Below are positions 1 to 62,362 of a stretch of 64,000 nucleotides of DNA, in pieces (position 1 is the first letter of the stretch; each line of letters begins with the position of its first letter). The notes below the pieces were generated by a model. The model was not told the DNA's origin and ran no database searches. It saw only the letters and a program-made list of their open reading frames with translations. The stretch comes from Lytechinus pictus (taxonomy: Eukaryota). The translations under genes and the position numbers were made by a program. The stretch is from the NCBI RefSeq assembly GCF_037042905.1, contig NC_087251.1, forward strand, positions 12,030,001 to 12,094,000. The letters are read 5' to 3'.

Positions 1-2782
1 TTATTTCTGAAAAAGGGACAATTTAGTTATAATGAATTTATACAAATTTTATTTCATATTTATTAATCTGTTATAAAGCCTAATGAGTGTGTGAAATTTG
101 TTGACAGTGCATGAGGCCTAAAAACTGGATATTTTAAGTATTTTTGTAATCATGAATGGGATTCATTAATTGGTTGATATATTTTTAGCAAATAATGCGA
201 GCGCAAATCGCGATCCGGAATTTTTTAATGGGGGGATTTAAGTAGTTTGTTATAAAATTAATATATAGGTATACATAACTCACCAATCAAAATGCGAGCG
301 CACAGCGCTAGCTCATAGGCCTTTATTATTTTTTTTACAATCGAGACACCTGAAAAGGTATATTTAGAGAATCTTATATGAAATATAAAAAGACAATACG
401 TAGGCCTACTTGGCATATAGTGCGAGCGCACAAAATGTTGCAAATGTTGATTCAAACCATAAAACGGACATTTTCCAGAGCACTTAAAACATAAATTGGT
501 AAATAAAACAAAATAATGAAAGATCGATGTCCGAGCTGAATTATGTTTTGTATATTGATATCAAAACTTGATATTTTAAACTACATATCAGCCTATTGAG
601 CAAGATATGTATCTCATCGAACAGGCAATGTGAGCGCGATGTGGAGCGAAACTTTAATATAGTGACATCAAATATTTTTTAAAATTGTTTTCCAAGTCTT
701 CTTCTGACCTTATTTTATTCACTCGTCTTCCACCTTTTATGTTTCGTCTTCTTTTTTCTCCTTTCTTTCCCCTTTTTTTTCTTCCCCCGTTTTTCACAAT
801 TTATTTGCTCTGTCAACAGGGGGGAGGTTGCCCTCGGGCCGCCTATGTTAGTAGTTGTTATGATGAACACGATGCATATCTATTAAGAAATGAATGCGAC
901 CGCGAAGCGCTAGCTGAAAACTTTTATAATGATGAAATGAAAAATACATTTTCAGTTGTCAGGTTAGAATATCAAATATTTTCAGCTTGTGCTTCTCGTT
1001 CGCATAAAAAACTGTAAGGTCGGGATGCGTATAATTATAACTAAACAATTTATTGATGCCAGTGCGAAGCGCGAGCTCAATTTTGTATATACTGACTTAA
1101 GAGGGACTAAGGTAGAATTCCTATTCTAATTGCTTGTCCTTTTCTCTTCCTTTTTTCTGTTTCTTACCCCTTTTTGCGCCACCATGGGGGGGGGGGGGCA
1201 AAATCTTTGCCCCCTGGATCGACCTATGTATGTTGACTTGAAAAACACTAAAACTTACATGTGGGATTGAAGCAGAGGATACATACCTCATTAATCAAAT
1301 ATTGCGAGCGCGTAGCGCGAGCTGAATTTGATAATAACCCTTTTTTGTGACCCTGAACAGGGTATCTATCTCGCTAAACAGACTTGAAACTCGAAAACAT
1401 TTTTTTTTTCTGTTATCGTAAAAACGGGATATTTTAATTCAGCCACATTAATTGAAGTTTTTTGGCAGGACATATATTTCACTATAAACAGGCAATGTTG
1501 CGTCCCCGGTCGAAAATGAATTTGCATGAAGCCCTCTAAGTTCAAGGTCAATTTGGCGCCCTCGGTTGAACATAAACTTGGCGCCCCCATGTGAAATATA
1601 ACTTTGCCCTCCCTCCCCTCTCTGAAACATGTATTTGTCGCATTATGGTCAAAATTCAAATTAGCGCTCCCCTAGTTCGAACATCAATTTGGTGCCCCGC
1701 TAGATCGAACATCAATTCGGCGCCCCATAGTTCGAACGTCATTTTGGCGCCACCAAATCAACGTCCAGGTCAACATCTCCCTCTTCCGTTTACCATCTCC
1801 TTTTCTTTCTTTTTTCTTTCTTTTATCCTCATTCCCCTTCCTTCCTTTCTCTTTCTTTCTCTCTTTCTTCCCCCCTCTTCTTTTCCCCCCTTTCTTCTCT
1901 TTCCCCATCTTTTCTTTCCCCCTTTTCTTCTCTTTTTGCTGTCTTTTCTTTCCCTCTTTTCCTCTCTCTTTTCTTGTTTTTCCTCTCTTCCCACTTACTC
2001 TCTCTCTTTTTTCTTCTTCTTTTCCCCCTTTTCCTTACTCCGTTCTTTTCTTTTCTTTCTTTTCCCTCTTCCACTTTTTTTCTCTTTTCCCCCTTTACTT
2101 CTCCCTTTTTCTTTTTCTTTCCTTCTCCCTTTTTTCTCTTTTAATCTTTTTTCTTCTCTCCCTCCCCTTCCTCCCTCTCTCTCTTTCTTCTCTTCTTTTC
2201 CCCTCTTCCTCTCTCTCTCTTTTTTCTTATCTTTCTTCCCATCTTCCTCTCTATTTAAATATTCTTCTCTTCCTTCCTCTTTGTTTTCTTCTTTTTCTTC
2301 CTTTTCCTTTCTCCTTTCTTTTCTTCTCTTCCTTTTCCCTCCTCTTTTTTCCCTCTTCTTTCCCCTTTTCTTCTCCCTTTTTTCTTTGTCTTTCCTTTCC
2401 CCTTTTTCTTCTCTTCCTTTCTCCTTCTTACTTTCTTTTCTATTCTCTTCTTTTCCCATCTTCCTCTTTCTTTTTTTATTCTCTCCCTTTTCCCCTCTTC
2501 CCCCTCTTTTTTTTTTTGAGCTGGTGGTGGGGGGGGGGGGGGTGAGGCAGTTCCCCCTCGGCCCTCCATGGATCCGCACCTGATAGAACCCCATGGCCTC
2601 GTATCATTTGACCTTTGGACCTCTCGATGACATTTGATATATCTGATCATAATTTTACACACACTGGGGACTATCGGACCCGCGGTCTATCGGACCCGCG
2701 GTCTATCGGACCCGCGGACTATCGGACCCGCGGTCTATCGGACCCGCGGTCTATCGGACCCGCGGTCTATCGGGATGTCCCC
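1..2782 (-). mobile_element. Foldback-like element copy A (partial, runs off window start), inverted sibling of copy B, carrying the same nested hAT-like insert
   Basis: 1-2782 is the reverse complement of about 4104-7043 (roughly 90-95% identity by eye). It ends in a 16-bp array and GGATGTCCCC at 2782, and shares the GGATCCGCACCTG|ATAGAACC junction with copy B. Confidence 0.9.
2669..2773. repeat. 16-bp tandem array G(T/A)CTATCGGACCCGCG, about 6.5 units
   Basis: Directly visible; forms the outer TIR domain of copy A. Confidence 0.95.
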
Positions 2783-2857
2783 GTCCCCGCGCGACCATGG
2801 GGTCTCGAAAAGGACCCTAAACAATTATTTCCTATATTCTGAAAATGCACCCCTTAA

Positions 2858-3240
2858 AGTGATTGGTTAACATTGGTTTGACTTTAAAAAAATCTGAGCT
2901 AGAAGGTCACACTTGTCACCTGTGTCTGTGATATGTTACAAAAATGAAGCCCAGAAAAAATTGAGTTCGAAAATAATTATTTAGTGCTTCAAAAATTGAA
3001 ATATAAAGTGACCGAAAACACCATCTTAATTTCATCCCATACACTTATGTGTACTATTTAGGCGTCTATAAGACGCCTATTTACAAAATCGGGGTTTGCC
3101 TTGTAGCTTTAGCTTTTAATTCTCAATAATGGTTGTTTTCAGGGTTTATTAGTTCTAATACATGCACTTGTATTGTACACATGTTTCATCTTGGTTTGAG
3201 AATTTTTTAAATTGGCTGCTCACAAAGTTAAACAATACCT
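2858..3240. mobile_element. Kolobok-type MITE (TTAA TSD, AG...CT ends)
   Basis: TTAA at 2854-2857 and 3241-3244; imperfect TIR AGTGATTGGTTAACATTG / AGGTATTGTTTAACTTTG. Confidence 0.7.
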
Positions 3241-3401
3241 TTAACAAGTATTGGCATGTGAAACCCCTACCCTTAACAGGTATTGGAAACAAAACGATAC
3301 TCTTGGCAAGTATTCCCCGAATTGAACCCCTATCTATTAAAACAAGTGCAGCGATATTTTAATTGTGTTTCGGACGTCGGTCGTACCTTTACCTACATAC
3401 C

Positions 3402-3606
3402 GAGGTTTTTTTACCCGACTGCTAAGAAAGCATGAATGCCTGTGAGCAAGCAACAAGGGGACCAACGGCTTAAGGTCCTCTCAGACTCCGAGGGACCTGG
3501 TAATGAGGATAAATGCCTTACAGGGCACTAGCGCACCACTTGGGAATCGAAGCCGGGTCACTGGAATCTGAAACCGCCGCTCTACAGACTGAGCTATCGC
3601 GACTCC
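3402..3606 (-). mobile_element. tRNA-derived SINE
   Basis: Minus strand begins GGAGTCGCGATAGCTCAGTCTGTAGAGC (A box), then GCTTCGATTCCC (B-box-like), a non-tRNA body and a short A-tail. Confidence 0.7.
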
Positions 3607-3628
3607 ATCATTGGGTTTAGTACGGTCC

Positions 3629-3798
3629 CACCCAAGCCAGGGTTCATTACATGCCGCCGCGCACAGAAAAATCAAGCCATTGAAGTCGTGTGTTGTGGAC
3701 CCAAGAAGTGAGATCCCAGCACGCGCGACCCACTAGTTAGAAATCCACTGCCAAACGCGGTTCGTGGTGCGAGGTTAGTATCGCAATACGTGTGAGTG
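3629..3798 (+). mobile_element. Small CAC...GTG element (module 1) flanked by direct repeat GTACGGTC(C)
   Basis: GTACGGTCC at 3620-3628 and 3799-3807. Inverted copy of 3957-4103 + 10255-10287. Its terminal hairpin has a 14-nt deletion. Confidence 0.7.
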
Positions 3799-4112
3799 GT
3801 ACGGTCCCACCTCCGACTCCTTGCGCGAACCATGCTCTAAACACATTGACTGTTGGGGCAAAAAGTACATCATTTATAAAACATTTGTCTTAATTTTTAT
3901 ACCCTCGCAAAGGCTAAACACATAGATTTCCTCGCGAAATACATGTAGATAGGGCCCACTCACACGTATTGCGAGGTTAGTATTAGTATACTAACCTCGC
4001 ACCACGAACCGCGTTTGGCAGTGGATTTCTAACTAGTGGGTCGCGCGTGCTGGGATCTCACTTCTTGGGTCCACAACACACGACTTCTATGGCTTGAATT
4101 TTCGGGGACATC

Positions 4113-4220
4113 CCGATAGACCGCGGGTCCGATAGACCGCGGGTCCGTTAGACCGCGGGTCCGATAGACCGCGGGTCCGATAGTCCGCGGGTCCGATAGA
4201 CCGCGGGTCCGATAGTCCGC
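4113..4220. repeat. 16-bp tandem array, about 6.5 units (left TIR of copy B)
   Basis: CCGATAG(A/T)CCGCGGGT units directly visible. Confidence 0.95.
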
Positions 4221-4303
4221 AGTGTGTGTCAAATTATGATCAGATATATCAAATGTCATCGAGAGGTCCAAAGGTCAAATGATACGAGGCCATGGGGTTC
4301 TAT

Positions 4304-7300
4304 CAGGTGCGGATCCATGGGGGGCCGAGGGGGAACTGCCTCAGCCCCCCCCCCCACCCCAGCTCAAAAAAAAGAGGGGGGGGGGGGAGAGGGGAAAAGG
4401 GAGAAAATAAAAAAAAAGAAAGAGGAAGATGGGAAAAGAAGAGAATAGAAAAGAGAGTACGAAGGAGAAAGGAAGAGAAGAAAAAAAGAGAAGAAAAAGA
4501 GGAAAGGAAAGACAAAGAAAATGGGAAAAGAAAAGGGGAAAGAAGAGAAAAAAGAGAGGAGGGAAAAGGAAGAGAAGAAAAGAAAGGAGAATGGAAAAGG
4601 AGGAAAAAGAAGAAAAAAAAAGAGGAAGGAAGAGAAGAATATTTAAATAGAGGAAGATGGGAAGAAAGATAAGAAAAAAGAGAGAGGAAGAGGGGAAAAG
4701 AAGAGAAGAAAGCGAGAGAGAGGGGAAGGGGGAGGGAGAGAAGAAAAAAAGATTAAAGAAAAAAAAGGGGAAAGGAAAGAAAAGAAAAAGGGAAAAGTAA
4801 AGGGGAAAGAGAAAAAAGAGGAAGAGGGGAAAAGAAAGAAAAGAAAAGAACGGAGTAAGGAAAAGGAGGAAAAGAAGAAGAAAAAAAGAGGAAGGAAGAG
4901 AATAATATTTAAAGAGAGAGGAAGATGGGAAAAGAGAAAAAAAAAAGAGTAAGGGGGGAGGAAGAGAAGAAAAACGAGAAAAGAGAGAGGAAAAGAGGGA
5001 AAGAAAAGACAGAAAAAGAGAAGAAAAGGGGGAAAGAAAAGATGGGGGAAAAAGAGAAGAAAAGGGGGAAAGGAAGACAATAAATGAGAGAAGAAAAGGG
5101 GAAAATAAAGAGAAGAAAAAGAGAGAGAGAGGAGGAAAAGAAGAGAAGAAGAAAAGGGGAGAGGAAGAGGGGGAAAGAAAGAGAGAAAGAAAGAGAAAGG
5201 AAGGAAGGGGAATGAGGATAAGAGAAAGAATAAAAGAAAGAAATGGAGATGGGAAACGGAAGAGGGAGATGTTGACCTGGACGTCGATTTGATGGCACCA
5301 AAATGACGTTCGAACTATGGGGCGCCGAACTGATGTTTGAACTGGAGGGGGGCGCCAAATTAATATTCGAACTAGGGGAGCGCTAATTTGAATTTTGACC
5401 ATATGGCGACAAATACATGTTTCAGAGAGGGGGAGGGAGGGCAAAGTTATATTTCACATGGGGGCGCCAAGTTTATGTTCAACCGAGGGCGACAAATTGA
5501 CCTTGAACTTAGGGGGCTTAATGCAAATTCATTGTTGACCGGGGGCGCAACATTGCTCGTATTGCCTGTTTATAGTGAAATATATGTCCTGCCCAAAAAA
5601 CTTAAATTAATGCGGCTGAATTAAAATATCCCGTTTTTACGATAACAGACAAAACCAATGTTTTTTAGTTTTAAGTCTGTTTAGCGAGATAGATACCCTG
5701 TTCAGGGTCACAAAAAAGGGTTATTATCAAATTCAGCTCGCGCTACGCGCTTGCAATATTTGATTAATGAGGTATGCATCTTCTGCATCAATCCCACATG
5801 TAAGTGTTAGTGTTTTTCAAGTCAACATACATTGGCCGATCCAGGGGGCAAAGATTCCCCCCCCCCCCCCATGGTGGCGCAAAAAAGGGGTAAGAAACAG
5901 AAAAAAAGAGAAAAAGGACAAGCAATTAGAATAGGAATTATACCTTAGTCTTTCTTAAGTCAGTATATAAAAAAATTGAGCTCGCGCTTCGCGCTGGCAT
6001 CAATAAATTGTTTAGTTATATACGCATCCCGACCTTACAGTTTTTTATGCGAACGAGAAGCAAAAGCTGAAAATATTTGATATTCTAACCTGACAACTGA
6101 AAATGTATTTTTCATTTCATCAAGTTTTCAGCTAGCGCTTCGCGGTCGCATTCATTTCTTAATAGATATGCATCGTGTTCATCATAACAACTACTAACAT
6201 AGGCGGATCCAGGCGGCCCGAGGGCAACCTCCCCCCTATTGACAGAGCAAATAAATTGGGAAAAACGGGGAAAGAAAAAAAGGGGGGAAGAAAGGAGAAA
6301 AAAAAGAAGACGAAACATAACAGGAGGAAGACGAGTGAATAAAATAAGGTCAGGAGAAGACTTGGAAAACAATTTTTGAAAATATTTAATGTCACTATAT
6401 TAAAGTTTCGCTCGCGCATCGCACTGCCTGTTCGATGAAATACATATCTTGCTCAATATGCTGATATGTAGTTTAAAATATCAAATTTTGATATCAATAT
6501 ACAAAACATAATTCAGCTCGGACATCGATCTTTCATTATTTTGTTTTATTTACCAATTTATGTTTTTAAGTGCTCTGGAGAATGTCCGTTTTATGGTTTG
6601 AATCAACATTTACAACATTTTGTGCGCTCGCACTATTTGCCAAGGAGGCCTACCTATTGTCTTTTTGTATTTCATATAAGATTTTCTAAATATACCTTTT
6701 CAGGTGTCTCGATTGTAAAAAAATAATAATAAAGGCCTATGAGCTAGCGCTGTGCGCTCGCATTTTGATTGATGAGTTATGTATACCTATATATTAATTC
6801 TATAACAAACTACTTAAATCCCCCCATTAAAAAATTCCGGATCGCGATTTGCGCTCGCATTATTTGCTAAAAATATATCAACCAATGAATCCTATTCATG
6901 ATTACAAAAATACTTAAAATATCCAGTTTTCAGGCCTCATGCACTGTCAACAAATTTCACACGCTAGGTTTAACAGATTAATAAACATTAAATAAAATTT
7001 GTATGAATTCATAATAACTAAATTGTCCCTTTTTCAGAAATAAATATCGACAAGTTTTAGGAAAAGAAATAGAAGACAGTCATCATTCGTATATGATGAC
7101 AAAATGTCCTTAGGCCTAAAATGTCTCGATCCTAGGTCAAAATAATAATAAAATATCAGCTCGCGCTTCGCGCTCGTATTATTTATATAGTGCTATCAAA
7201 TTTCACTATATACACAGTGCTGTAAACAGTGCTTAAATTGACCCTTTTCATATTGGAATTTCAAATATTATTTTCAGCTCGGGCTCTGCGCTCGCACTAT

Positions 7301-8938
7301 TGATTTTTATGATGAAAAATGAAATGTATTCAGATTGCCAGGATTCTGTCGAACTCTAAAACACGCGCACGCATGTTTTTTTGAGATACAAAGCTTGATC
7401 TTATTCAAAACGTGCTAAAATTATCCAGTTTCGAATCAGAATATCAAAAATTTTCTGCTCGCGCTTTGCGCTCGCATTATTATTGTAGGAAGATACCAAA
7501 AATTACCCATCCTTTTTCATGATTGACAAACATGAATCGAATGTCCCATTGGGGGATTTGAAATTTCATCTTTTTAGGTTGGAATATCAAAAATGTTCAG
7601 CTCGCGCTTCGCGCTCGCATTATTTAATCGTTGAAATATGTATCGTCTTAATGGCTAACTACAAAACATCCTTAACAGGTCCCTTTTCGACCAGGCCAGA
7701 ACGAATATTTAACATTTCTGCTCGCGCTTCGCGCTCGTGGTAATTATCTAGTTACATACGCGTCCTGTTCAGGTTCACAAACATTGCCCAAAATGTTCAA
7801 TTTTCAGGACAAAATACATGAAATTTCATTTTTAGATTACATAGGGCTTAAGAGATTATTACACATTTATGTGGCTTATAAAGTAAAGCTAGGAAATGAC
7901 TGTTAGGACATGGGCGTTTTGCCCACCCCCCCCCCAAAAAAAAAGAGAGAATCAAGACTAAGAAAAAATAGAGATAAAAGGAAATGGATTAGGATGAAAT
8001 ATAATATTATTTACCAAATATTATGTCAAAATCTATCACAACCTTGTATTTTTGTAATAAAAATGTCGGCATATTTGCTTGCTCGCTTCGCTCACTGGCA
8101 ACTTCTTATTAATTCTATGCGATACACCATATCGAGCCCCCTCGAAATTGTTGGCTCATTACGGCACTGGGACAACCCCTTCAAAGAAAAAAAAATCAAC
8201 TTTGAGCGGCCGATCGGGGAAAATATGGGTGAAAAATGGCCCCTCCCCCTATTGGCGGAAGCTGGGACCGCCCCTGACTTAGGCTTTCAGGATATAATAC
8301 ATGAAAAATCTATTTAAAAAAATCAGATCGCGCTTCGCGTTCTCATTATTTATTTAGGCCATGTGAGAGACCTCAATGTGTTTTTAAGAATGAAATCTCA
8401 AATTTTCTTTAACGTCTACCCCCCTCCCACTTCATTTATTTTTTTAACTTGGTGCCGTCGCCACCCCCCCCCCCCCCCCGTGCACCCATGCTGAATAAAT
8501 ACGCCACTGATGAGGAGAATTACTCGATTGCTTCGAGATTGCATTATTCCCAAGAGGTTATCATTAATATTATTGAAGGGTATTCTAAATCAACAGTACA
8601 GAAACTACAGCTCTCGTTCACACAATATTCTAGTAGGGCCTACTCTGGTTAGAAGTTACACCAATTTGAACACCCCCCCCCCCCATCGCTCGTGGTTCGC
8701 GCTCCCATTGATATCACATTATACATGTATATTGAAGGATTTTTTTTTATAGAACACATGAAAAAGTGGTCTTTGTTTTTTTAAAATGTGATTATAAGAT
8801 AATTCAAAATCCATTTAAGGCACTTAAGTTAGCCTGGCCAGGAGGGAGTGGGCGCCATTTTTCGAAAAGTACACATGGGCGCCAAAAATCAAGTCAAATT
8901 CCCCCCTCCCTCCCCACGAAATCCTGGATCCGCGCCTG
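4304..8938. mobile_element. hAT-like non-autonomous element nested in the left TIR of copy B
   Basis: TIR CAGGTGCGGATCCA / TGGATCCGCGCCTG; 8-bp TSD GGTTCTAT at 4296-4303 and 8939-8946. The foldback TIR resumes after it. No transposase ORF. Confidence 0.85.
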
Positions 8939-9163
8939 GGTTCTATAACAATAACCCAATTAGGGCAATCACCCCCTGACAACTACTTCAAGGAAAACAT
9001 TATCCCCATATTTTTACCGCCGGGGACTGTTACCCCCCCCCCCCCCCCGGAAATTTACTCTCCAGACAATTACCCCGGATAATTACCCCTAGTACGGAGC
9101 CTTGAAACTGCCATCAACGTGAAGACATGGCGTGGTACTTTATCTTGCCATGTCTTAATTAAT

Positions 9164-9492
9164 CATTGGTGGCGGAAGGCAAAAAAAAATAGGGGGTCCA
9201 CCTGAAATTTTGGGATGGACACAGGTAAAAATTTTGACAAGCAAATCAACCAAAATTTATAGGAGGGACCACCAAAATTTCTTGACAAGAAAAAAAAAGG
9301 TTATCAACCAAAATTAGGGGGGGGGGGACAAAAAGATTTTAGGGGGGGCCCACCTCAATTTAGGGGGGGTGGACGTAGAAAACAAATTGAAAAGCAAACA
9401 AAAAGGTTCTCAACTAAAAATCTAGGGGGGACCGTCCCCCACCTCAAATTTAGAGGGGAAATACCCCCCCCCCCCCGCTTCCACCGCCTAAG
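9164..9492. mobile_element. hAT-like MITE nested in copy B
   Basis: 8-bp TSD TAATTAAT at 9156-9163 and 9493-9500; imperfect TIR CATTGGTGGCGGAAG / CTTCCACCGCCTAAG. Confidence 0.75.
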
Positions 9493-10020
9493 TAATTAAT
9501 ACGCTTATTATTTCGACATAGCGATATATTCTATCTTGTCAAGTCGATATGTCCACATGGCGAGATATGAAGTGTACAAGTCCCGGCGAGAATCCCGATA
9601 TATCGCCTTGCTGACATGTAGTCGACTTGGCAAGATAAAATATCTCGCCATGTTGACATATAACTTTTTATAAGTGGACTGACTTGGCAGGATAACGTAT
9701 CGCGCCATGCGGACACATGGACATAATAAGCTTATTTAGTCGACAAGGCAAGATAAAGTATCTCGCCATGTCGTCAAGTCGATGGCATTTTAGAGGCTCC
9801 GTATGGCGTCTAGAGGGTAAATTTCCGGGGGGGGGGGGGGGGGTAACAGTCCCTGCACGATAAAAATATGGGAATAATATTTTCCTTGAAGTAGATGTCA
9901 GGGGGCGATTGTCCTTTGGGTCATCGTTATAGAACCCCATGGACTCGTATCATTGGCCTTTTGACCTCTTGATGACATTGGATCTCACTATATCCTGATC
10001 ATAATTTTACACACACCGCG

Positions 10021-10237
10021 GACTATCGGACCCGCGGTCTATCGGACCCGCGGTCTATCGGACCCGCGGACTATCGGACCCGCGGTCTATCGGACCCGCG
10101 GTCTATCGGACCCGCGGACTATCGGACCCGCGGTCTATCGGACCCGCGGTCTATCGGACCCGCGGTCTATCGGACCCGCGGACTATCGGACCCGCGGACT
10201 ATCGGACCCGCGGTCTATCGGACCCGCGGTCTATCGG
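10021..10237. repeat. 16-bp tandem array, about 13.5 units (right TIR of copy B)
   Basis: G(T/A)CTATCGGACCCGCG units directly visible. Confidence 0.95.
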
Positions 10238-10711
10238 GCTGTAACCGAATTTTCTGTGCGCGGCGGCATGTAATGAACCCTTGGGTGGATATAGGGCCTA
10301 CCCTTTTTTCATTAGTGTTTTTGACACCCTTATTACGTACGTAACGTGCCCTATCTTGAAAAAGACATCCTTTTTACAATTTTTTTGGTCGCGCATGGTA
10401 TCCACTCGTCAATGTAAGTGCCCCCCCCCCCCCCCGGGCGTCAATGTGATATTTCTTGAAATCAATTGGTTTTGTATAATTTTGTAAATATTTTGTGAAC
10501 AAAGTTGAAAAGTCCGCGAAGTTTGGACACCCCACCATACATTTTATGTTTGGTGTAATTATACTCATCTAAATATTGGTCTAAAAGTCTAACACCAAAA
10601 AAATGAGACTAGAGGTCAACACTGAACTTCAGTTCAACTGAAGTTGAAATCACTCATGTGGATTGTGGGGGCATGATTGATTAATGATTTGATGATAATT
10701 AATAATCTCAC

Positions 10712-10807: not shown

Positions 10808-11115
10808 TTTGAATTATTATTGTTAATCATGAACAATAATGCCTCTCTCTTAGCTTCTTGGACCAGGATACCTCTCAATCAATATCGTTCACTGCATGTG
10901 TGATGCATGTGGTGTGTATACTGTAGCTCTAAAAATACACGTGCGCCATCTCTTGTTGAACCCTGTATGTATACGGTATACAAGTCGTCATATATATCAT
11001 ATCGATACTTGAACTAAAATGGCACCGTTCTGATTGTTCTCCCCTGGAGTATCGTGATGAAAAGTGACAATTTTCGACCTGTTTTCTTAGAGCTGGGGAA
11101 AACTTTTGTTGGAGA
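10808..11115. promoter_or_regulatory. Putative bidirectional promoter and 5'UTRs between XPO5-like and ZNF318-like
   Basis: 308 bp between divergent ATGs; contains CACGTG (~10938) and YY1-like CGCCATCT (~10944) and AAAATGGC (~11016). Function is inferred. Confidence 0.6.
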
Positions 11116-12393
11116 ATGAGAAGAGGATATTCTAGACCGCCCATGGGGCGAGGATATGCTGGAGGACGTGGAAGGGGATTCGAGCAACATCGTGGTGGAT
11201 TTCGAGGAGGTGCGTCTAGGCCGACGGGCATTGACAGCCATAGTGGAGCAGGTGGAGCTCAACAACGTGGACGTGGGAGTAGCGGCTACATACCGGACAC
11301 CGGACCGCTACCGTCATCAGGCATGAACGATACGCGTCCTTCAGATCCGCGGAACAGAGCGCGGATAATGGGTGAAAATGAAATTCCACAAATGGGACCT
11401 GACTTTAGTGGGACTGGGAGTGTACAGGATATGAATAGAAATGTAGGAAATTATTCTACAAGTGCAATGTATGTAGGCCAAAGGCAAAGTGCAGAATTTG
11501 TAGAACAAGGACAAATGCATATGCACAGTCACAGGCCAGCAGGACATGGTTTTACACAAATTGCAGGGACGACAGGGTCTGGGCAAAGTGGGGTAGGGAA
11601 TTATCCAAGCCAGTACCATGCTGTGCAAGGGCCAGGTGATGGCAGGTTTGAAAGGGAAAGTTACATGGAAAGAGAAAGAAGGCAGGGCCCAGGGCAAAGA
11701 GATTATTATCCAGATATGGGAAGGTCCGACAGATACAAATCAGATTTTAAGAGCCCTAATGAAAGCAGTCCAGAGTATTTTTCAACAAATTATCCAACAA
11801 CCGAGTTGGAAGAGGAAGAATATAGAATGTATCAAACAAGGGAAACAGATGATAGGGGGAATAGAGAAGGAAGTCCGGAACCATTCCAAGAAGATGAATT
11901 TGAATACGAATGTGAGAATCCTGATTCTCAATCCGGTAATAAACGAGAATCACAATCCGATATAGATCTTAGCCCTGATCGCAGTGGCCGTAGGAGCAAC
12001 ATGTCTGATATCGAATTGACCCCCAATGAAAGGGGTCGTGAGAAAAACCTTTCTGATATTGATTTAAGCCCTGACCATGATCCAAAAGTTATTAAGAATG
12101 AAGCTCAAGGGAGTATTCAAGGCCCAAGATCAAGTAGTAGGGACTTGCAAGATAGGAAAATGGATCAAATGTCTAGTCTAAGAGAGGAACGGGATCCACA
12201 TAGGAGTGGGTCTGCACTTCAAAGAGATACTGAAAGAGGGTTTGAAAGAATGCAGAGGCTTGGACCTACATATGGAGAGAGATCTATGATGGAAGATGCC
12301 AGAGAACGTGAATCTAGGTCAAGAAGTTCCTCACTTCCAAGAGATCAGCAAGCACCTGATCTCAAAGGACGGGAGCCCAATGCGACAGATGTG
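11116..12393 (+). CDS. ZNF318: ZNF318-like exon 1 (RGG-rich N-terminus)
   Basis: Long ORF; donor GTG|GTAATT, phase 0. Confidence 0.8.
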
Positions 12394-13357
12394 GTAATTC
12401 CCAATGTGCTGTGCATCTATCATAAGTTAAACTTAGATATTGACTGGCATTTATGGATCAGATAGTTTTAAAAATAGTGTCATTCATTTTTTTTTGTAAG
12501 TCCATTCTTAAGTTGAAATTGATTGGATGCATTCTGGAAGTAAGATTTGCTAAATAATGACGATTGTCAACTTGAAAATTAGGAGTTTTCTTAAAGCTCT
12601 AATAATTGACCCAATTGTTAGCAAGTTTTGTTCTTTGTATTTCTCTTTTAGAGATAGGCCTACTCTTGGCAACTTAGATAAGTATTAAACCTTTAAATTA
12701 CAGAAAAGTTAACCTTGCATGAATTAAAAAAAATCAAATAGGCCTAAGTCATCGCGATTTTCACATATTTTCTAATTCAGATTTCGCTTGAATGGGATTA
12801 AAAGAAAATTATGTTGGCACTTTGCAGAGTTACCTGATTGGTTTTCAGGTTGAGTTTTTGTAGTGCTATGATGACCCATAGACCAACTGCAGGCAATAAA
12901 ATAGATTTTTTTAGACTACTTTTTGCATTTTACTGCCTAAATGATCTACATTTTACGAGCTTTTAACTCAATGAATGGGCATTTTCCAGGGCTCTTTCAG
13001 TAGGATGAATGTGAAAGAGTTTGTTTCATGAGACCGCGGTATCTTGATTATATTCAGTTAGTCAAGGATTGGTTTGCATATTCCACTGTCTTTGAAGGGA
13101 ACCTAGATAAATACAGCATAATTATATTTAATAGCGTAATATAGTTATGTGTACAATGATGAACTTGAATATGGGCTGCTTTGACAATGAAATCTTTTAC
13201 CATGCTTTTAGCTGTAGTATTCAGCTTTTACAATACTGTATAGATGTGATCATAGTGCCAGTTGATTCTAAATTTCTATATTTAGGGAAGATTACAAATG
13301 GTACAGAAGAAGTAAAAGCATAAATAGGAAACTAGCACAGGCACGTATAAGCACATA

Positions 13358-13840
13358 TTATATGACACCTAGATAGATCCTTGTCATTTGATTGGTAGCT
13401 TGACGTTGATCATTCAGTCCATTTTACAATGATATCATCAATGGTGCAATTTTGGATCCATGCAATTTTGTCCATTGCACATGCGTGCTAAGACCACCAG
13501 CAGTACATTATGTAAAAACACAATCGTGTTTAAACTGCTTACAGTGCGCTTGTTTGTATGTGACAATCAACAGACCGTGTTTGCACTGATGATGCACTTT
13601 TGCATTCAAGTTTAAATATAAGATTAAAAGCCAAATGACAAGGATCTATTTTTAGGTGTCGTATAAAATAAATAATGAATGTTCTTTTTCATTCATGCAA
13701 TGGACAGGATACTTCTATTCGGTGAAATATGAAATGAGTCATCCATTCAATGAGGCGTAGCCGAGTTGAATTGATCATTTCATCTTTCACCTCATGAAGT
13801 ATTCTGTCCATTGCACTCTGGAACATTCATTATTTGTATA
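13358..13840. mobile_element. Double-palindrome non-autonomous element (Crypton-like layout)
   Basis: IR1 ~13360-13390 / ~13633-13664. IR2 ~13662-13752 / ~13762-13840, centred on GAGGCGTAGCCGAG. No clear TSD; family assignment tentative. Confidence 0.5.
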
Positions 13841-14275
13841 CTTTTTACTGAAATGGTAATGATTTGGAGAAATAAATAATAAAAGAACAGCATATTTTTT
13901 TAAGTACATTCACTGTATCATATCAAAACAGTTAAAATTTGATCATAGTTGCAAGATTAAAAAACATTTGCTGTAAATTTCATTTTCTTGAAATGTTGTT
14001 TCACTCCATTATATGCGATTTTTTTTATAAATCTGTACGTAAGAGAAGTGTCATGATCGGTATATACTTTGGAGGAGATCTCATGAATTTTAGGGTGTTA
14101 CAAATAATAAATTCGGAGTGTTCAATTTCAATTGAAAATAATGCTATGCTCAATCATTTTTCATCTTTCTTACAATGCTATTCTTTTGGCAGATTGCACT
14201 TAACAAAAATTAATGAATAATGCATAAAGAAAGCACATTCTCACATTTGTGTTGTCTTCAATATATTCCTAATAG

Positions 14276-14772
14276 GAGATGATGATGAAACAGGAAGATC
14301 CAAAAACTTCACTTGTCATAACTGTGACCAATGACCAATGCCCAGAGAAGGATGGTCCCCATTCTGCTATTGACCGTCTTGGACCAGCAGTCCCTCAGAC
14401 GAAGGATGCAGCAGAAAGACTTGGACCACCTGTCTCTGCTCCTGCAGATCGTCTTGGACCACCTGTCCCTTCTGCTCTGGGTGCTGCTGCTAATCGTCTT
14501 GGTCCTTCTGTGGTAGCTCCTGCAGAAAGGCTTGGGCCATCAGTAGCTGCCCCCCAAGAGCGATTGGGTCCTTCACCTAATGTACCTACTGATCGTTTGG
14601 GCCGTCCTCTGGAGACGCCTGCTGCAGATAAGCAAGCATTTGCTCCTAAGGCTCACGCTTCAGCAGCAGCTGCCTCAAAAAGGTCAAGGACGAAAGACAA
14701 GCTACATGCCATAGCTGATGAAGACTTTGATCTTTATGCTGATATTCCACCACCAGAGAATGAAGAAGAAAA
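14276..14772 (+). CDS. ZNF318: ZNF318-like exon 2 (RLGP repeats)
   Basis: AATAG|GAG acceptor; AA|GTAAG donor, phase 2. Confidence 0.85.
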
Positions 14773-15087
14773 GTAAGAAAATGCATCAAGTACTTTTTTA
14801 TTTTGGTGCAGCCTTCATTACTGTTTTTAACGAATCATAAACATGGAAAAACACATAGAAATGTTAAGGGATGAAATTTTGTACTAATAGCATTTAAATG
14901 TATATATGATTTTTTTCCCACCCCCTCATACATTACTTGCTAGTCAAGATCATCATTTTCAAAGTATCCGTATAAGACGGTATTAAAGTGTAAATTTTTT
15001 TCTTGTGGGGGGGTGGTGTCTTTAGATTATAGATAATGATTCAATGTATTTATGGTGAATGATTTCTTGTGACTGACTTTTTTTCAG

Positions 15088-18000: not shown

Positions 18001-18943
18001 TCCTTTAACGGAGCCTGTGAGTGATGAAGAGCTCGCTCATGATACACCTAAGAAGCATCAGCAGTATGCGGAACTTGCCAATATCAAGATAAAAGTTGCC
18101 CAAACACCATCTTCATCAAGATCAGAGTCAAAAAGAAGGATAGTGTTGCTTCCTGATACACAAGAAGATGACCCTGAGGAACAGGAAGGAAAGAGACATG
18201 TCACCAGAGAACCAGCTGGTGGGAAATGGTCGGCACAGGAGAAGCCTTATCAAGAAGGAGATTACTACAAGCCTCAAAGTTGGGAGATGGCAGAGCGTAG
18301 ACGAATAGAGGAACAGATAAGGATGGAAATGCAAATAAAAGAAGAGAAAGAGAAGGAGAAAAGGAGAAAGGAGATGCTGAAGAAAGAACAAGAGTGGCTG
18401 ATGAGAGAGGTTGCCTTGAAGACAATGGAAGAAAAGATAAGGAGGGAAGAAGAAAAGCTACTGCAGGTCAAGGAAATAAATAAGCGTCAGGAAGAGAAAA
18501 TACGAAGGGAGGAAGAAAAGCTCATACATGATTGGGAATTAATGAGGAGACAGGAGGCAAAGAGACTGGATGCAGAAAAGTCTGGTGAAGCACGCAGACA
18601 ACAGAAGCTAAGAGAAGAAAAAGACAAGATCCAGAAGAAGTTGGTACTTCTCCAGAGAGCGCTTGAATCATTGAGGAAGCAGCAAGGAGACCTGATGAGG
18701 CGCATGAAGCACTCAAAGGAGGGACACAAAGATCCCCAGATTGCGCACAACAGCAAACTACAACAAGAGATTTCCGACCAGATCAGATCTCTGAGGAAGG
18801 CCTATGCAGATGTTGGAACCAAAGGATATGACAGGGATGCTGAGAAAAGTGGATCAGAAAGCCGCGACGGAAAGGAACAGCGAAGCTTGTCTACAGACAG
18901 ATCAAGCTCAGGCAGAGATGACAGAGACGGGGAGAGAGAAAAG
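15088..18943 (+). CDS. ZNF318: ZNF318-like exon 3 (RS domain, polyQ, coiled coil)
   Basis: TTTTCAG|A acceptor; 1299-aa ORF; AAG|GTATGG donor. Confidence 0.9.
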
Positions 18944-20093
18944 GTATGGTGCAAACTTCTATTATTGAAGTTATTCAAATGTTTGAATACTTGATATCTA
19001 TATGTAGATGGAATTCGATTGATACTTGCAAAAGTTTATTTTGAGCTTCTCATAAATCTATGATATATTTGATGAAATTCAATTTTAAAAGAATATTGAT
19101 ATTGAAACAAAATGGATATCAATCCCTAAAAACAGCAAGCTTTTCATATTATATTTTGGAAAGAAAGACCAAGATGGCTATGAATTAAAGTAAATGGAAA
19201 ATGCTCAGCAAGTCTGATGGTTCAATTGAAAAATTATGTTCTAAATCAAATATCTGTGTGTGTTATACCCATTTTTTGCAAACATCTAGTTTCTGCTTCC
19301 TATACTTTCAATTAAAATCTTGCAATTTGATTGATTTTCTCTGTTGATTTTGATAAATAATTTACCAAGTTTTTCTTGATAGAAGCATTCATTGTTTATG
19401 TTTGAAGTAGATTTATTTACTTTTCTTCAGACCAGACACATCATAGTGTGGTTAACGTTGGTTTGAACTGATAGAAAAGTGTATGGTGTTGATTATTGAA
19501 AAGAATAATTTCACTTTAAATTTTATACTTTCCAGCTCTTTGATGTCCTAGATGACCTTTTTTTTTTACTCCCTGTATGAATTCTCACTGGAACATTTCT
19601 GCCTTTTATGTAAATTATGAAGAAAAAAAAGCATTTGTTAACATATATGTCTGTTCCTTGTCTGCCAAGGGGTATTACCAGCTAAGGCCAGAGAAGAGCT
19701 ATTTGATGGAAATGAAAGAAGGTAAAATTTATACATCATGTCGTCTAGCAGAAAGTTTAAAGAACAGGTAATACAATCTTGTGTATCTTGATATCCTGCC
19801 TTTTTTATTTAAGGTGATTGATAAGGTAGGATCACCCTTTTGTGAGCTTTTTACCAAAGTCAAGAAAAAATACACCCTTTGATAAGTTTTGAGGTAATTT
19901 GCATGTTGAGTAGCATTTAATAGTTCTATTTAAAACTGGAAATAAAGTTGGGTTTAATAATTTTGAAAACTCTCAAAGCTAGAGGGTGATCCTTCCAATC
20001 ACTAAATTTGAATTTGTTAGTTGAATACCTGCACAATTTTCTGTATCCCTTTTAAACTTTTTTCTCCTTTTTATATTATGTTGAATATTGTAG

Positions 20094-56650: not shown

Positions 56651-57219
56651 GTCGCGTAACGTTGGGGAAGAACAATAGAAAACAAGATGGCGGCGTAAAC
56701 ATCGGGCAAGTCTCTTCCGTCTATTCATGATATTTTTCTCATTTTTTTTGGATGAATTCTTGTCTAAAAATAAAATCCATAGCGTAGAAATGTCGGAAAT
56801 TAAGTTGTATCCCATGTACATGATTTAGGGCTAGATCTTTTTAGAAAGAAAGTAGAAATCTCGGGGGCGAAAGTTTCAGGTTTTTTGGTGGTACACGCAA
56901 AAGTATATGACGGAAGCCCTGGCTTCGTATGAGAGTGACCTTACGTTAGTAAATGATTTTTACTCTCTAGAAAGTAGAAGCCGCCTGGCTAGGGACGGTA
57001 CTATCACGAGTATAATATACTGTTGTTGGAGCTATCCCCACTGCGTGCAAAGTGAACTTGATTTCCCGTAGAGTGGGGACTGTATCACGAGTATATATGG
57101 AGAGAATCCAAGTGTAAGTGTGTTTCATTTGTGTGTGTTATCATTTCGCAAATTCTCGAGCTGTGCGAGAGTTGGGGACTGTGTTCTGGAGAAAGGAAGT
57201 GATTTTCATGCGTTCTGGT

Positions 57220-58087
57220 CACTCTAGGCGACACCCCAATACTTACCCGTGCTAATAAACTGGGACTCCACTCACGCGCATTTGGGCCGCCCTAGCTTAG
57301 AACTAAGCTTTGTTTTACTAAAAAATAAATCTTGTAATGATTCAATAAATGTTACTTAATAAATTAGTACTGTTAAATCGGTACTCACCGGTTCTTTTCT
57401 TGAATTTTCTGGCAATTTCCCACGCTTCTGGCTTCAATTCTGCGGCTGTTCCTGTCGCGGTAGACAGCTACATATGCAACTTTATTTATAAATAGAGCGC
57501 CCCTTACGATAGTTGTTAAGAACGCGGCCAAATTGTTAGGTTTTTTGCACTGTGTCCAAGGCGTTTTTATTTTGTTTGATTTTTTATTTTTTAATAAATA
57601 TTTTGTTAAATAGCGATTTTTACGTCAAATATTAAATTCATATCACAAAATATTTTTAATTGTAGAAATATATATAATATCATGCAATTATTTATTCTAT
57701 ATATATTTTATAATAAAATTTATAATTGTTGCGGTCTTTAAAAAAGGATAGTCGATCGATCAGGTGATGACTACTCGTATCACGTGATCTGAAAATCAGC
57801 TTCGTACCGCTTTGATCGCACTCGACGGGACCGGACTGACTGCCAAGAAAAGATCGAAAAAGGACTCAAATGTAAGTTTCCCTTTATTTTATAACATTTA
57901 AAGTATAGTTAATGGGTAATTTTTTAATAAATGCTAAACAAATGAGGACAAAGCTTGCATTTTTCGAGTAATAATCACTAATATCATAAAAATACTTGGG
58001 TGCAGGACTTTCTAACCTGTTTTTAACGCATTGTCGCCTATGAGGTCCATACATGTTAATGTTTGGACCTCATTGGTACTAGGAGTG
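57220..58087 (+). mobile_element. CACTC...GAGTG element L, flanked on both sides by GTTCTGGT
   Basis: GTTCTGGT at 57212-57219 and 58088-58095; hairpin 58040-58073; asymmetric subTIR TAGGCGACA. Confidence 0.8.
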
Positions 58088-58797
58088 GTTCTGGTCACTC
58101 CCACTCATGGGATCAATGCATCTCGCGTGCGAAGGATTCATATGCACATGGTGCACGCGAATTTTTCACACCCTTTTTACTAAAATAACTAAGCCATTCC
58201 TTTTAAAATAATGTTTCTAATTGTGCTATGACACTTACCGAACCATATGGATCGTTTCTTGTCTTCTCTTTGGTGTGTTTTTAAGAAAAAAAATGCATTT
58301 TCTCGTGATCTTCACGTAGATACCGCAGGGTAATTGTGGTTGTAAACTTTTGCTTAAAGAGGGCGCGCGATATTATTCACAAGATGTTTGTTTACGGTTC
58401 TGCAGCTTGTACTGCTAGCTGCATTTTAGACGCTCAGCATTATTTTCCTCTTTCTGTTTTTTTTTTTGCTGTCAAGCGGTATTTTCTATTGTAGCGCCAT
58501 CAGCGATAATGAAATGTAAAGAGTCGCCTTGAAATGAAGAAAAATTATGTCACATTAATTCGTTAGTTTGTTTCCTATTTTTTTTCACTTTTTTCTTCTT
58601 CCTCATCTATGATCAAAGGTGAATACCTTTTTTTGATATAGATGTTCTAAAAGCTGGACATTTTAAATATTTTGTTCAAGTAAATAAATCAACAGGATAG
58701 TAATCAAAATGCGATAGAGCTGCCCGAGCTGAAAATTCTGATACAAGGACTTGAAAATAAAACATTCTGAGCACTTTTTATAACCATGATGAGGAGA

Positions 58798-58799
<2 letters not shown>

Positions 58800-58847
<48 letters not shown>

Positions 58848-58901
58848 AAGTTATACATGTACTACAGCTTTGGCAACTCTTTTATTTAAATATTGTGTGA
58901 A

Positions 58902-58941
<40 letters not shown>

Positions 58942-58958
58942 CTTGATTTATTTACGCC

Positions 58959-58993
<35 letters not shown>

Positions 58994-59000
58994 ATGTATA
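58800..59000. repeat. (TA)n microsatellite cluster
   Basis: Three TA runs directly visible. Confidence 0.95.
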
Positions 59001-59839
59001 TGAAATAAGCTAACACGAAAAAAATACGTTTTGGGGACTGTTAAATAAGAATTCATGAGTGGGATAGGTAACTATCTATTCTATTCTTGTTCGTTTTCTA
59101 TTATTATTTGTGTGTTGTGTTTATTTTTCTTGAAGCACCAAAAGGTGGACATGTCCGCTAAGATATATTAACGAAGTCACCATTATTATCACAAGCTAAC
59201 GGATCAATTAAAATGTGAGCGTGAAACGTAAGCTTCTTTTTTTCTTAATTCAGTCTTAACGATACTTTTTCATCATATTTTAAAGGTGAATCTCATGATT
59301 CAAAATGATAAATGCTTGTCGCACGGGCAGAAATAGCGGGACCAATAGTTATTTTCAATATTCCGAACTGCATTCTGGACGTTGTATAAGCGCCTTTGTA
59401 TAACAATTAAAAGGTAGGTCTATTTACCTTACAAATTATGTGAGCGCTGAACTTTTGGACATTTAAACCTCAACAAATTGACATTTTTTAAATATGAACA
59501 ACATCATAAATGTCACTTACAAAAATGATGCCAGCGCGAAGCTCGCGCTTAGAGTTTTTGATATTGATGACAGGACTGTATCTAAATGAAAAATAATGCG
59601 AGGGCATTTGCGCTTAAGATTTAAATTTGGGATTTGAAAAGTCCGACAGATTACCTATACTTTTAAAAGAGGAATGACCTCCAGAATTCAAGCGCGAAGC
59701 GCCAGTAGATTTATGTTGAAGTTTAGACCTAGAACAGGGACGTTGAACCTTTATAATCATGAAAAAGATGGTATTTTTATAAATAAAACATGGGAGTCTA
59801 ATTTTGTTTTAGTGTTAATATTCAGATCTTCAAACTTGA

Positions 59840-60335
59840 CATTTTCCTATCCCCTTCATTATCCCCTCTCCTTCTCCCTTTCCCCATTTTCGTTCTCCCT
59901 TCTTTTCTTCTCTCCCTTTCCCTTCCCTTTTTCGCTTTTCCTTTCCCTTCTTTTCTTTCCTTTCTCCCTCCCCTACTCTTTTCTCGCTCTTTCCCATTTT
60001 TCTTTCCCTCTCCCTTCCCCTCTTCCTTTCTTTTGTTTTCTTTCTATTTTATGGTCTCCTTTTCCCTCTCTCTCCTCTACCTTTCCCCCTCCCCTGATCT
60101 GTCTTTTATTGTCTCTCCTTTCCTTTCCCGCCCCCTCCATTCCCTTTCTCGCTTTTTCCTTTCCCTTCTTTTCTTTCCTTTCTCCCTCCCCTATATACTC
60201 TTTTCTCGCTCTTTCCATTTTTCTTTCCCTCTCCCTTCCCCTCTTCCTTTCCTTTGTTTTCTTTCTATTTTATGGTCTCCTTTTCCCTCTCCTCTACCTT
60301 TCCCCCTCCCTTTTCCTTTCCCTTTCCCTCTGCTT
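59840..60335. repeat. Polypyrimidine tract with an internal ~140-bp duplication
   Basis: ~59952-60094 is repeated at ~60172-60311. Confidence 0.85.
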
Positions 60336-61166
60336 TTTTGTGCAAACATTAACACGAACATCTTGCTTCCTACACACACACACAAACGCCCGCTATCTAA
60401 CACACGTAATGCGAAACAATCGGGACATTATCATTTTGTTCATACATATATATGTATATTTTCTCAATGAACATTTTCATCTATTTAAAGCTTTGAAAAT
60501 GATCAAACAATGATTCCACAGGCGAAATCTCAATGATCATTAGAAAGGTACTTTACCCATTTTCATTTTATGTCATTGTGATTATTCCATACTAAGGCAA
60601 CATATTTTGGATATAAAAATACGTGAAGGATATGTTCCTCTTCTGTTTTATACTTTAACAGAAAACATTTTGTTCAACCAAATTATGATTTGTATTTCCA
60701 AGTTCCATGTAATATTTTCATTGGAAAATCTCTTAAAGGTCAAGTGCACCCCAGAAAAAATTGTTTGAATAAATAGAGAACTATGTTGATTTTTGGTACA
60801 ATTTCCTATTATGCGCCGACGACTTGAATCGAGAATGTTCGATAGGAAAATTTCGCATTTCGATTGTTGTTTGCGTAATTTCCACCGCAGTACGAAGGAT
60901 GACTAAGGACGGACCGAGCGAAGTATCCTGGTTGAGATTTGGAGGTAAGCGATAAAAACACTTTAATAAATAATTTATAATTGCTTTTTGAAATAAACTT
61001 GATCATACGATCAAGATTAACATAGTGGACAAATATTGAAAGGTTTGGCGTAGTTTAGTCCCTCACATTCGTGTGATGGATGAAAACGTCAAAATGCACT
61101 ATGAAATCACATGTGTTGTGCGAGGTTAGTATACTATTACTAACCTCGCATGTTGTGTGAGTGGGT

Positions 61167-62043
61167 CACTCCTAGTACCAATGAGGTCCAACATTACATG
61201 TATGGACCTCATAGGCGACATCAGTAGTATTTTTGGTTAGAAATCTCTGAGAACAGGATATTTATATATTATATCACAAGTACAAGCTATATTCCTTTCT
61301 CTTATTTGAATTATAATTTTATAGTGTAAATGCATCGTTAGCAACAAAAAAAAATGAAAGAAATGAAGGGGAACTTACATTTTCACGGCTTTTTCCTGAT
61401 TTTCTGGGCAGCTGCTCTTCTCTTCTGACTCGCGATCGAAGCTGATATGAAGATCACGTGATTCGCGTTCTCGTCAGCTGATCGGTTGGTTATTCTTTTC
61501 GTCAGACGTTAATAATATATATTTTATAATGCTAGCATTCATCGCTAATTTAGGTGAAAGAGATTGAAGTTAAACAGCGCCAGGTCGGAATCATAATTAT
61601 TTTGGAAGAGTGTATTTATACACTCGATCTCATACCTGACGTAGACGGCGCTATTCAACAAATGCACAATCTTCAATATAAAAAATAAAACAGAAAGAAC
61701 GCCTTGAACACAGGCCAAAATGCCTAACGATTTCTCCGCGGCATTAACAACTATCGTAAAGGGCGCTCCATTTATCAATAAAGATGGATGCTAAGCTGTC
61801 TATGGCGACAAAATTTGCCGCAAATATTTACGAAGAATTGTGAGAAATGGTCTGAAAATGCAACAAAAGAACCGGTGAGTACCGATTAAACATTATCAAT
61901 TTATTTAATAGAACATATTTAATGACTACAATGTAACAATTTCTAGATAATATTGCTTAGTTCTAAGCTAGGGCGGCCCAAATGCGCGTGAGTGGAGTCC
62001 CAGTTTATTAGCACGGGTAAGTATTGGGGTGTCGCCTAGAGTG
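61167..62043 (-). mobile_element. CACTC...GAGTG element R, inverted sibling of L
   Basis: 61955-62043 is the exact reverse complement of 57220-57308; hairpin 61181-61212; followed by GTTCTGGT at 62044-62051. Confidence 0.8.
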
Positions 62044-62362
62044 GTTCTGGTACTGGTAGGTGTTACTGTCAGTTAGTAATAATCCCCATTTTTGGATTTG
62101 GGGACTATATCACGATTAGGACCCTATGCCGCTAATGGAATGAAACATAAAGGAAAATACGTAAACTGAGCGACGATTGGGCAGCGTACGGTATGGAATC
62201 TAAGACTAAGTCTAACTTAACTTTACTTTAGTTACATTCCTCCCTCGCCTCGGGCCTAGGTCTACGTGCTAACATAGATCTGAATACTTGGGACTAAAGT
62301 AAAGAAAATTATTCCTATCCTAGTCAGAGTACGGAGTAGTCCTAATTACAGCTGCGACTTAC

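Follow-up and report, generated by a model that had tools for sequence, protein, structure and literature searches.

Inverted copies of a short sequence, lying close together and with similar ends facing each other, may be the two terminal repeats of a single transposable element or two insertions of the same element, and the question is which of these applies, and to what kind of element, in a stretch of the Lytechinus pictus genome (assembly GCF_037042905.1, contig NC_087251.1, positions 12,030,001 to 12,094,000 of the forward strand). This whole stretch of 64,000 nt, with a G+C content of 36.7%, is what we call the window. An earlier note, made from the sequence alone, had described here an inverted pair of modules (modules 1 and 3, between 3620 and 10298) with hairpin ends facing inward, and had taken them for two insertions. 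We find that the pair is real, and the verdict is that it consists of two insertions, most likely of P-like MITEs (transposable elements of the miniature inverted-repeat kind) that carry an unusual palindrome on one side only. The components of the pair are as follows.

3620..3628, left target duplication of module 1, 9 bp, GTACGGTCC
3629..3798, plus strand, module 1, a 170-bp non-autonomous element with its plain end on the left and its hairpin-type end on the right
3799..3807, right target duplication of module 1, 9 bp, an exact copy of GTACGGTCC
3808..3947, no strand assigned, spacer of 140 bp, part of an older high-copy repeat that seemingly continues to the left of module 1, with loose ends at 3851 and 3886
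3948..3956, left target duplication of module 3, 9 bp, GATAGGGCC
3957..4103, minus strand, hairpin-end part of module 3, 147 bp, including the 8-bp site struck by a nested insert
10255..10287, minus strand, plain-end part of module 3
10288..10298, right target duplication of module 3, containing an extra AT (2-nt slip), GATATAGGGCC

After removing the 6,143-bp insert (4104–10246) together with one copy of its 8-bp duplication, module 3 measures 180 bp and can be aligned end to end, inverted, with module 1. Only two substitutions, one 4-nt indel and one 14-nt indel separate them; the aligned positions are 99% alike and the likeness ends at the element termini. The distance between the modules is 158 bp (140 bp between their duplications), so that the inverted copies about 160 bp apart described before were confirmed. 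Because each module has its own, different 9-bp duplication, the data support two separate insertions and not the terminal inverted repeats (TIRs) of one element, as had been proposed; a single exact 9-mer duplication has a chance probability of about 1e-6, and the pair taken as a unit (3629, 10287) has no common flanking duplication. The flanking repeats had also been given as 8–9 bp long with a slip on the right. Each module does have its own repeat and the slip of module 3 amounts to 2 nt, but the length is 9 bp, not 8–9, in the three members of the family found in the window (modules 1 and 3 and element M, see below), the slipped copy included. A duplication of 13 bp was considered for module 1 and fails at the right junction, while one of 7 bp with CCAC..GTGG ends is indistinguishable from 9 bp given the three G-N7-C sites. 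The changes private to module 1 are a 4-nt gain near 3635–3640, in the plain end, one letter at 3681, and the absence of 14 nt immediately after nt 17/18, counted from the right terminus, by which the hairpin is destroyed.

The same type of ends is found again some tens of kilobases away, in a second group of elements.

57212..57219 and 58088..58095, 8-bp target duplication of element L, GTTCTGGT
57220..58087, plus strand, element L, 868 bp, sister family
58093..58101 and 61164..61172, exact 9-bp target duplication of element M, GGTCACTCC, lying over the junction of L and R and the first 6 nt of R
58102..61163, plus strand, element M, 3,062 bp, same family as modules 1 and 3 by both ends
61167..62043, minus strand, element R, 877 bp, sister of L, inverted and sharing its 8-bp site
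62044..62051, third copy of the duplication of L and R, GTTCTGGT

The hairpin ends of module 3 and M match at 41 of 46 positions even though their interiors do not align, precisely the combination of shared end and unrelated interior that had been noticed before. Their plain ends match at 15 of 21 positions, the best non-self score among the 1,366 CAC-starting 21-mers of the window, and we have placed the start of M at 58102 because of this plain end shared with module 3. Both ends support the assignment of M and modules 1 and 3 to one family. L and R, on the other hand, match the hairpin end of the module family at only 17 of 46 positions. They have in common with the 9-bp family the initial CACTC and the motif GAGGT at nt 17–21, and the likeness of the plain ends is weak (7 of 12 shared columns, p 0.02). 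They represent a different but sister family, characterized by an 8-bp instead of a 9-bp duplication. L and R agree at every position of the first 89 nt and at nearly all of the last 50 nt, with interiors much less alike; they inserted at a single site in opposite directions, and M came afterwards, on their junction. The geometry of modules 1 and 3 had been described as the same as that of L and R, and this holds for the inverted orientation; however, L and R share one 8-bp duplication present in three copies, had no original spacer between them and belong to the other family. As a separate observation, there are inside L and R an E-box-like TCACGTGAT and motifs resembling splice donors that point both ways, as if a two-way promoter, or else what remains of a two-gene element, had been kept.

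The feature that most clearly marks these elements is the palindrome near one end.

3970..4001, subterminal palindrome of module 3, with a 14-bp stem and a 4-nt loop, at nt 14–45 from the terminus and with AGGT at nt 18–21

We folded each end and compared it with 200 shuffles. The z-score was -6.0 for module 3, -5.2 for M, -5.0 for L and -4.1 for R, with none of the 200 shuffles as good in any of the four, whereas the hairpin-type end of module 1 folds no better than its shuffles (z 0.11, 96 of 200). No 5' hairpin was found by this folding test in module 1 or L. The hairpin end quoted in the earlier note is therefore real in module 3 and absent from module 1, which has lost 14 nt of it. Statements about the families as such refer to the five elements in the window and to contigs of four public sequencing runs (4 of 24), surveyed over the region 2790–4012, so that the right junction of module 3 lies outside it; from this survey 15 of 173 joints and 32 of about 29,970 contig pieces were listed, and what we say of individual joints and pieces applies to those listed. 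The contig depth drops over the deletion but is high where module 3 keeps its intact hairpin, and all 14 listed pieces that cover module 1 stop within 3639–3782, indicating that the 14-nt loss is private to this copy.

The motif AGGT at nt 18–21 is present in the four intact hairpin ends (4/4) against 36 of 8,427 CA-starting sites in the background. Among the 69 CACTC sites it occurs in four, precisely those same ends, which count as two families and not as four tests. The pattern CACTC-N11-GAGGT with one mismatch allowed gave five matches where 1.66 were expected, a number reached by 5 of 100 shuffles and thus weak alone. Between the two families, five stem positions are changed on both arms with the pairing kept, and such paired changes might come either from selection for the palindrome or from separate fold-back origins. 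In two families, then, one end has the motif at nt 18 twice, in the form of a palindrome, and the other end lacks it, a trait that would be unusual.

What kind of element has such ends? We consider it reasonably probable that modules 1 and 3 arrived by two separate insertions and belong to a single young miniature non-autonomous cut-and-paste family, most likely of the P superfamily and similar to BuT5. That the elements in general are non-autonomous members of this superfamily is suggested, with about the same good probability, by their ends, their duplications, the half-sites of their targets and the AGGT at nt 18–21. All 10 ends of the five elements have CAC..GTG, with C as the third terminal nucleotide everywhere. 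P elements are reported to have CA..TG termini in which only the first 3 nt are well kept (PMC2577343), and BuT5 and its P partner have 3-bp TIRs with duplications of 8 or 9 bp (9 bp in 13 of 17), lengths of 7, 8 and 9 bp being on record for P-type elements and BuT5 (PMC3698922). Here the duplications are fixed in length, GC-rich and palindrome-biased. When the targets of modules 1, 3 and M are rebuilt, T-R-G is found in 5 of 6 half-sites (P 1.2e-7, three sites; 5e-4 for the two bases outside the duplication alone). In two of the three, the flanking letters are CAC or GTA/TAC and so resemble the GTG/CAC which the ends would restore; the target preference described for P is ATR|GTCCGGAC|WAT, and its terminal three bases restore the motif (PMC2577343).

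The register of the internal motif points in the same direction. The right-end primer of BuT5 begins with CAC and has AGG at nt 18–20 (PMC3698922); to judge from 55 unsequenced bases and from offsets of 32 and 30 bp of the subterminal inverted repeat (subTIR) in that paper, the primer would start at the terminus. In the fly P element, AGGT occupies nt 18–21 of the TIR, as given for a guide target (PMC11368186), and the P transposase is described as cutting the non-transferred strand 17 nt inside the end (PMC7776569). Module 1 keeps nt 1–17/18 of its hairpin-type end, although this is a single event that palindrome breakage also fits.

The closest relative in layout is BuT5 of the Drosophila repleta group, which like our elements is non-coding, has a 3-bp TIR, duplications of 9 and also 8 bp, interiors that are unrelated between conserved ends, the CAC start with AGG at nt 18–20 of one end, and is a secondary coloniser of repeat nests (PMC3698922). 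It differs in having a 16–17-bp subTIR at both ends, a known P partner and no G-N7-C bias, and a hairpin is not mentioned for it (PMC3698922). The P element of Drosophila melanogaster, known for double insertions, inverted pairs of the singed-weak type and local hops, resembles them in its CA..TG ends that restore the target, the T-R|G half-sites, AGGT at nt 18–21 and the 17-nt register (PMC2577343, PMC7776569, PMC11368186), and also in forming inverted pairs one duplication apart, as L and R do, and in re-inserting nearby (PMC2577343, PMC7776569). Unlike them it has perfect TIRs of 31 bp and 8-bp duplications, no one-sided palindrome is described in the sections of the sources used here, and in nature its tandems are for the most part head-to-tail (55 of 85 strains vs 8 of 85; bioRxiv 10.1101/158386).

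Several points weigh against a P affiliation. No autonomous partner or transposase was seen, so that membership rests on ends and duplications. A Pfam search of 98 reading frames from L, M, R, the interior of the insert and module 1 (frames under 38 amino acids, most low-complexity frames and 4104–5279 being left out) gave no transposase family and no coding remnant; 8 of the 98 had weak matches, all below the curated cut-off and none to a transposase. The AGG motif at nt 18 is found in none of the five plain ends, while P and BuT5 have their repeat at both ends, which would lower the case for a typical P element and not that for an element that works like P. No preference for G..C is seen in the BuT5 duplications as reported (PMC3698922). 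The site of L and R and one half-site of M do not fit T-R|G. The strict pattern of THAP sites was not found in the stems, which have only a loose T-x-x-G-x-G-x-T match of a kind that occurs about 12 times per kb in the background (11.8). No P-superfamily element with a one-sided hairpin or palindrome was found in literature searches, whose reach did not extend to Repbase and Dfam, where one is possibly catalogued. Repair of palindromes after a break at their centre is an ordinary process, and it fits the 14-nt loss as well. Finally, a local hop from one module to the other is not provable, since the letters common to modules 1 and 3 are rare only in one of the organisms behind the runs (3–15% of the depth in organism B, against 54–85% in organisms A and C); an argument for such a hop from a rare subfamily was dropped because it reverses between organisms.

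Of the other explanations the one that survives best, although we regard it as unlikely, is that the two insertions belong to another DDE group, such as Zisupton/KDZ, a short-TIR type of MuDR, or an unclassified lineage. Subterminal inverted repeats are a feature of Zisupton. L and R carry one of 9 bp, and no transposase was seen to decide. Zisupton is also reported to make 8-bp duplications, so that L and R by themselves would fit Zisupton/KDZ, but the duplication is 9 bp in the three members of the module family. Mutator-like elements (MULEs) make duplications of 8–10 bp; their ends, however, are described as long TIRs (over 100 bp) starting with GGG (PMC5499845), which do not fit the ends of the modules; the nested insert, by contrast, does agree with a layout of long TIRs beginning with G and an 8–10-bp duplication. 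The register of AGGT at nt 18 and the T-R|G targets match P and BuT5 instead. Two further groups are unlikely. In hAT elements the third terminal nucleotide is reported as always G and the duplication as 8 bp, against C at all ends and duplications of 9 bp here, and for Transib and EnSpm (CMCT) the CAC..GTG ends fit but the duplications given, 5 bp in Transib and 2–5 bp in CMCT, are not the 9 and 8 bp observed.

Another proposal, compatible with a P affiliation, is that the hairpin end attracts and orients incoming copies, a transposase bound to the palindrome capturing the new transpososome. In its fullest form this would be a P-like lineage whose motif for the cut site, present once per end in P elements, had shifted into a one-sided palindrome, giving a Helentron-like layout on a DDE element that drives asymmetric pairing and draws later copies hairpin to hairpin. 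We find both the mechanism and this lineage improbable, somewhat more so than a different DDE group. Each of the three insertions that came later in the window, one of modules 1 and 3, one of L and R, and M, is on the hairpin side of a resident, both pairs face hairpin to hairpin (2/2), and random placement would rarely leave two copies within 160 bp unless the family had thousands of members (genome size and copy numbers are assumed in this estimate). However, the orientation has p=0.0625 and was noticed post hoc, and the unrelated nested insert forms, with a partial copy of itself at 1–2783, an inverted pair with the same end facing inward; because of these two facts a rule specific to the hairpin is not shown. 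Moreover, modules 1 and 3 are 140 bp apart and not abutting, the whole of 2790–4012 is a nest of high-copy repeats with several insertions, and the restoration of the target by the terminal 3 nt of P (PMC2577343) already explains the inverted reuse of a site. Inverted pairs of P one duplication apart have been predicted and seen (PMC2577343), head-to-head tandems were frequent and double insertion common in a screen (bioRxiv 10.1101/158386), and local hopping is known (PMC7776569). By comparison with these cases, the pair and its orientation would be ordinary for P-like elements, and L and R would be exactly the documented case of an inverted pair one duplication apart.

A rolling-circle element of the Helentron/Helitron2 type (HINE, DINE-1), with the 3' hairpin acting as stop signal for an HUH transposase and here with target duplications, we regard as very unlikely. 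The resemblance lies in the asymmetric ends with one subterminal palindrome (a 3' palindrome as in HINEs, lost in module 1) and, for L and R, in an offset subTIR (PMC4067079, PMC3627910). HINEs are described with a 5' subTIR 2–4 nt from the end, a 3' subTIR at 38–60 bp and a palindrome 8–35 bp from the end (PMC4067079). The layout of L and R is close to this, with an exact 9-mer at the expected places (nt 6–14 and 46–56, the palindrome at 15–45), for which a shuffle test without positions gives p 0.06–0.09; some Helitron2 derivatives even have duplications of 7–19 bp (PMC3627910). But the subTIR is not significant in modules 1 and 3 (p 0.76–0.95) or M (p 0.17), and the folding test mentioned above gave no 5' hairpin. 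In the reported cases HINEs insert in T-rich sites without change of the target (PMC4067079) and the duplications of Helitron2 vary in length and follow TTTT-like tetramers (PMC3627910), while here they are fixed and GC-rich, with CAC..GTG at both ends, a combination absent from the rolling-circle elements as characterized in those two papers. Last, that 3629–10287 is one compound element with modules 1 and 3 as long TIRs, or a local inverted duplication made by repair, has almost no probability left: the 99% likeness in inverted orientation would suit it, but it stops at the element ends, the duplications surround each module and not the whole unit, and the spacer belongs to another repeat.

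Returning to the P-like reading, the history of the locus could be as follows. A transposase encoded elsewhere would cut at the CAC..GTG ends and join them to the target with a 9-bp stagger, preferably at sites of the form T-R|G-N7-C|Y-A, and repair would yield the 9-bp duplication. The palindrome would most simply be an inverted pair of the nt-18 motif recognised by the transposase, providing double-stranded binding sites. The second copy may have landed 140 bp from the first, inside the repeat nest, by a local hop or because of a hot spot, and inverted as P often does. Module 1 would then have lost 14 nt from nt 18, the position expected for the cut of the non-transferred strand, and is probably immobile. 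Module 3 might be the hop and module 1 its donor, in which the repair slipped at the cut site; we see this and an independent use of a hot spot as about equally probable. Module 3 would finally have been interrupted by the unrelated 6.1-kb foldback element.

This insert is a separate event, later than module 3; its parts, together with a second copy of it, are as follows.

1..2783, minus strand, partial second copy of the nested insert, inverted, 1,320 bp from the insert and with the same end turned towards it
4096..4103 and 10247..10254, 8-bp duplication of the insert, GAATTTTC
4104..10246, no strand assigned, nested insert, 6,143 bp, non-coding, with GG..CC ends
4113..4220 and 10016..10237, subterminal tandem arrays of a 16-bp unit, 6.8 and 13.9 copies

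The letters fit equally well CGG..CCG ends with a 6-bp duplication. The layout would be that of a foldback MULE similar in look to Muta1 of Aedes aegypti, the element with which we compared it (PMC5499845). According to the description available, Muta1 and the insert have in common the GG start, a short terminal motif followed by tandem subterminal repeats and the 8-bp duplication; they differ in the unit, 16 bp in the insert and 12 bp in Muta1, and no transposase was seen in the insert. The copy at 1–2783 is 92% identical over the first 1,790 nt and 96–98% in some arms, and its other end lies beyond the window. Near the right end of the insert there is an internal inverted pair (8938–9154 and 9742–9937, 78%), apparently a further nested element. 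Pieces at 55053–55961, with a CTCGCGCTTCGCGCTCG-type repeat, are 72–83% like the insert interior, and from this resemblance the insert seems partly built of a common interspersed repeat.

If the P assignment is true, the modules offer a compact natural substrate of 180 bp for a non-insect transposase of the P/THAP9 type, and would add to BuT5 a second example in which 3-bp TIRs go with 9-bp duplications. Should targeting by the hairpin side be true, the palindrome would be a built-in self-targeting signal. A one-sided 3' hairpin alone does not mean Helitron, a caution for curators, and inverted pairs that lie close together can serve as substrates of deletion and inversion. On the present evidence the locus is a well-behaved nest of transposons that will interest mainly the specialists in them.

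The module family is multicopy and diverged in three coded organisms. Position 3681 is covered with the family letter by 29, 69, 4 and 75 distinct contigs in the four runs, and most of the listed contig pieces differ from module 1 at 10–17 letters. In three of the four runs the depth is high in every bin of 2790–4012. No relatives of the elements were matched in metagenome contigs, viral contigs or prokaryote genomes, and among the sequencing runs listed for the sequence there was no RNA run and none with more than 0.18 of its words. A looser version of the pattern matched at least 120 viral loci; of the 120 listed, 5 had a stem of at least 9 bp, and these were discarded as chance, the most L/R-like of them lying inside a phage open reading frame of 1,482 amino acids.

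To the left of module 1, a piece at about 3367–3607 has a tRNA-like head on the minus strand and ends about 12 bp before the duplication; it is high-copy in the public contigs, is skipped by the joints 3332/3366->3606 and is probably a tRNA-derived short interspersed nuclear element (SINE). ARAGORN found no genes, the piece was called neither by ARAGORN nor by Rfam, and the latter gave a single chance match over 2784–4110 (E 0.24). Joints that skip module 1 (3632->3846 and 3632->3861), together with 3366->3606 and 3366->3851, have sides of 23–27 letters against a threshold of 31, and are only a hint that the SINE-like piece (about 3367–3605) and module 1 both interrupt one older repeat reaching into the spacer. 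Directly left of the nest, 2854–3332 is a very high-copy repeat with internal short repeats and a depth above 1 million in two runs.

On the other side, large exons extend over 11068–24140, with open frames of 465, 166, 1,305 and 305 amino acids coding for an RS-, Q- and K/E-rich protein and long low-complexity exons from 11068 on; the nest lies upstream of this gene or in one of its introns. None of three host open reading frames was matched in Pfam, nor did the Atlas give a match of at least 0.9 for the 1,305-amino-acid frame. Farther along the window, a small element that has long TIRs and TTAAAGGTCA-type ends is present in two diverged inverted copies (70–79%) at 34129–34721 and 53188–53636, and a fragment of the same type of end is found inside M near 60735. 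Between 44822 and 47632 there are arrays of tandem units of 140–170 bp, with an inverted piece at 47152–47360; four of the units show, by their letters, a CAC with AGGT coming after it at nt 18–21.

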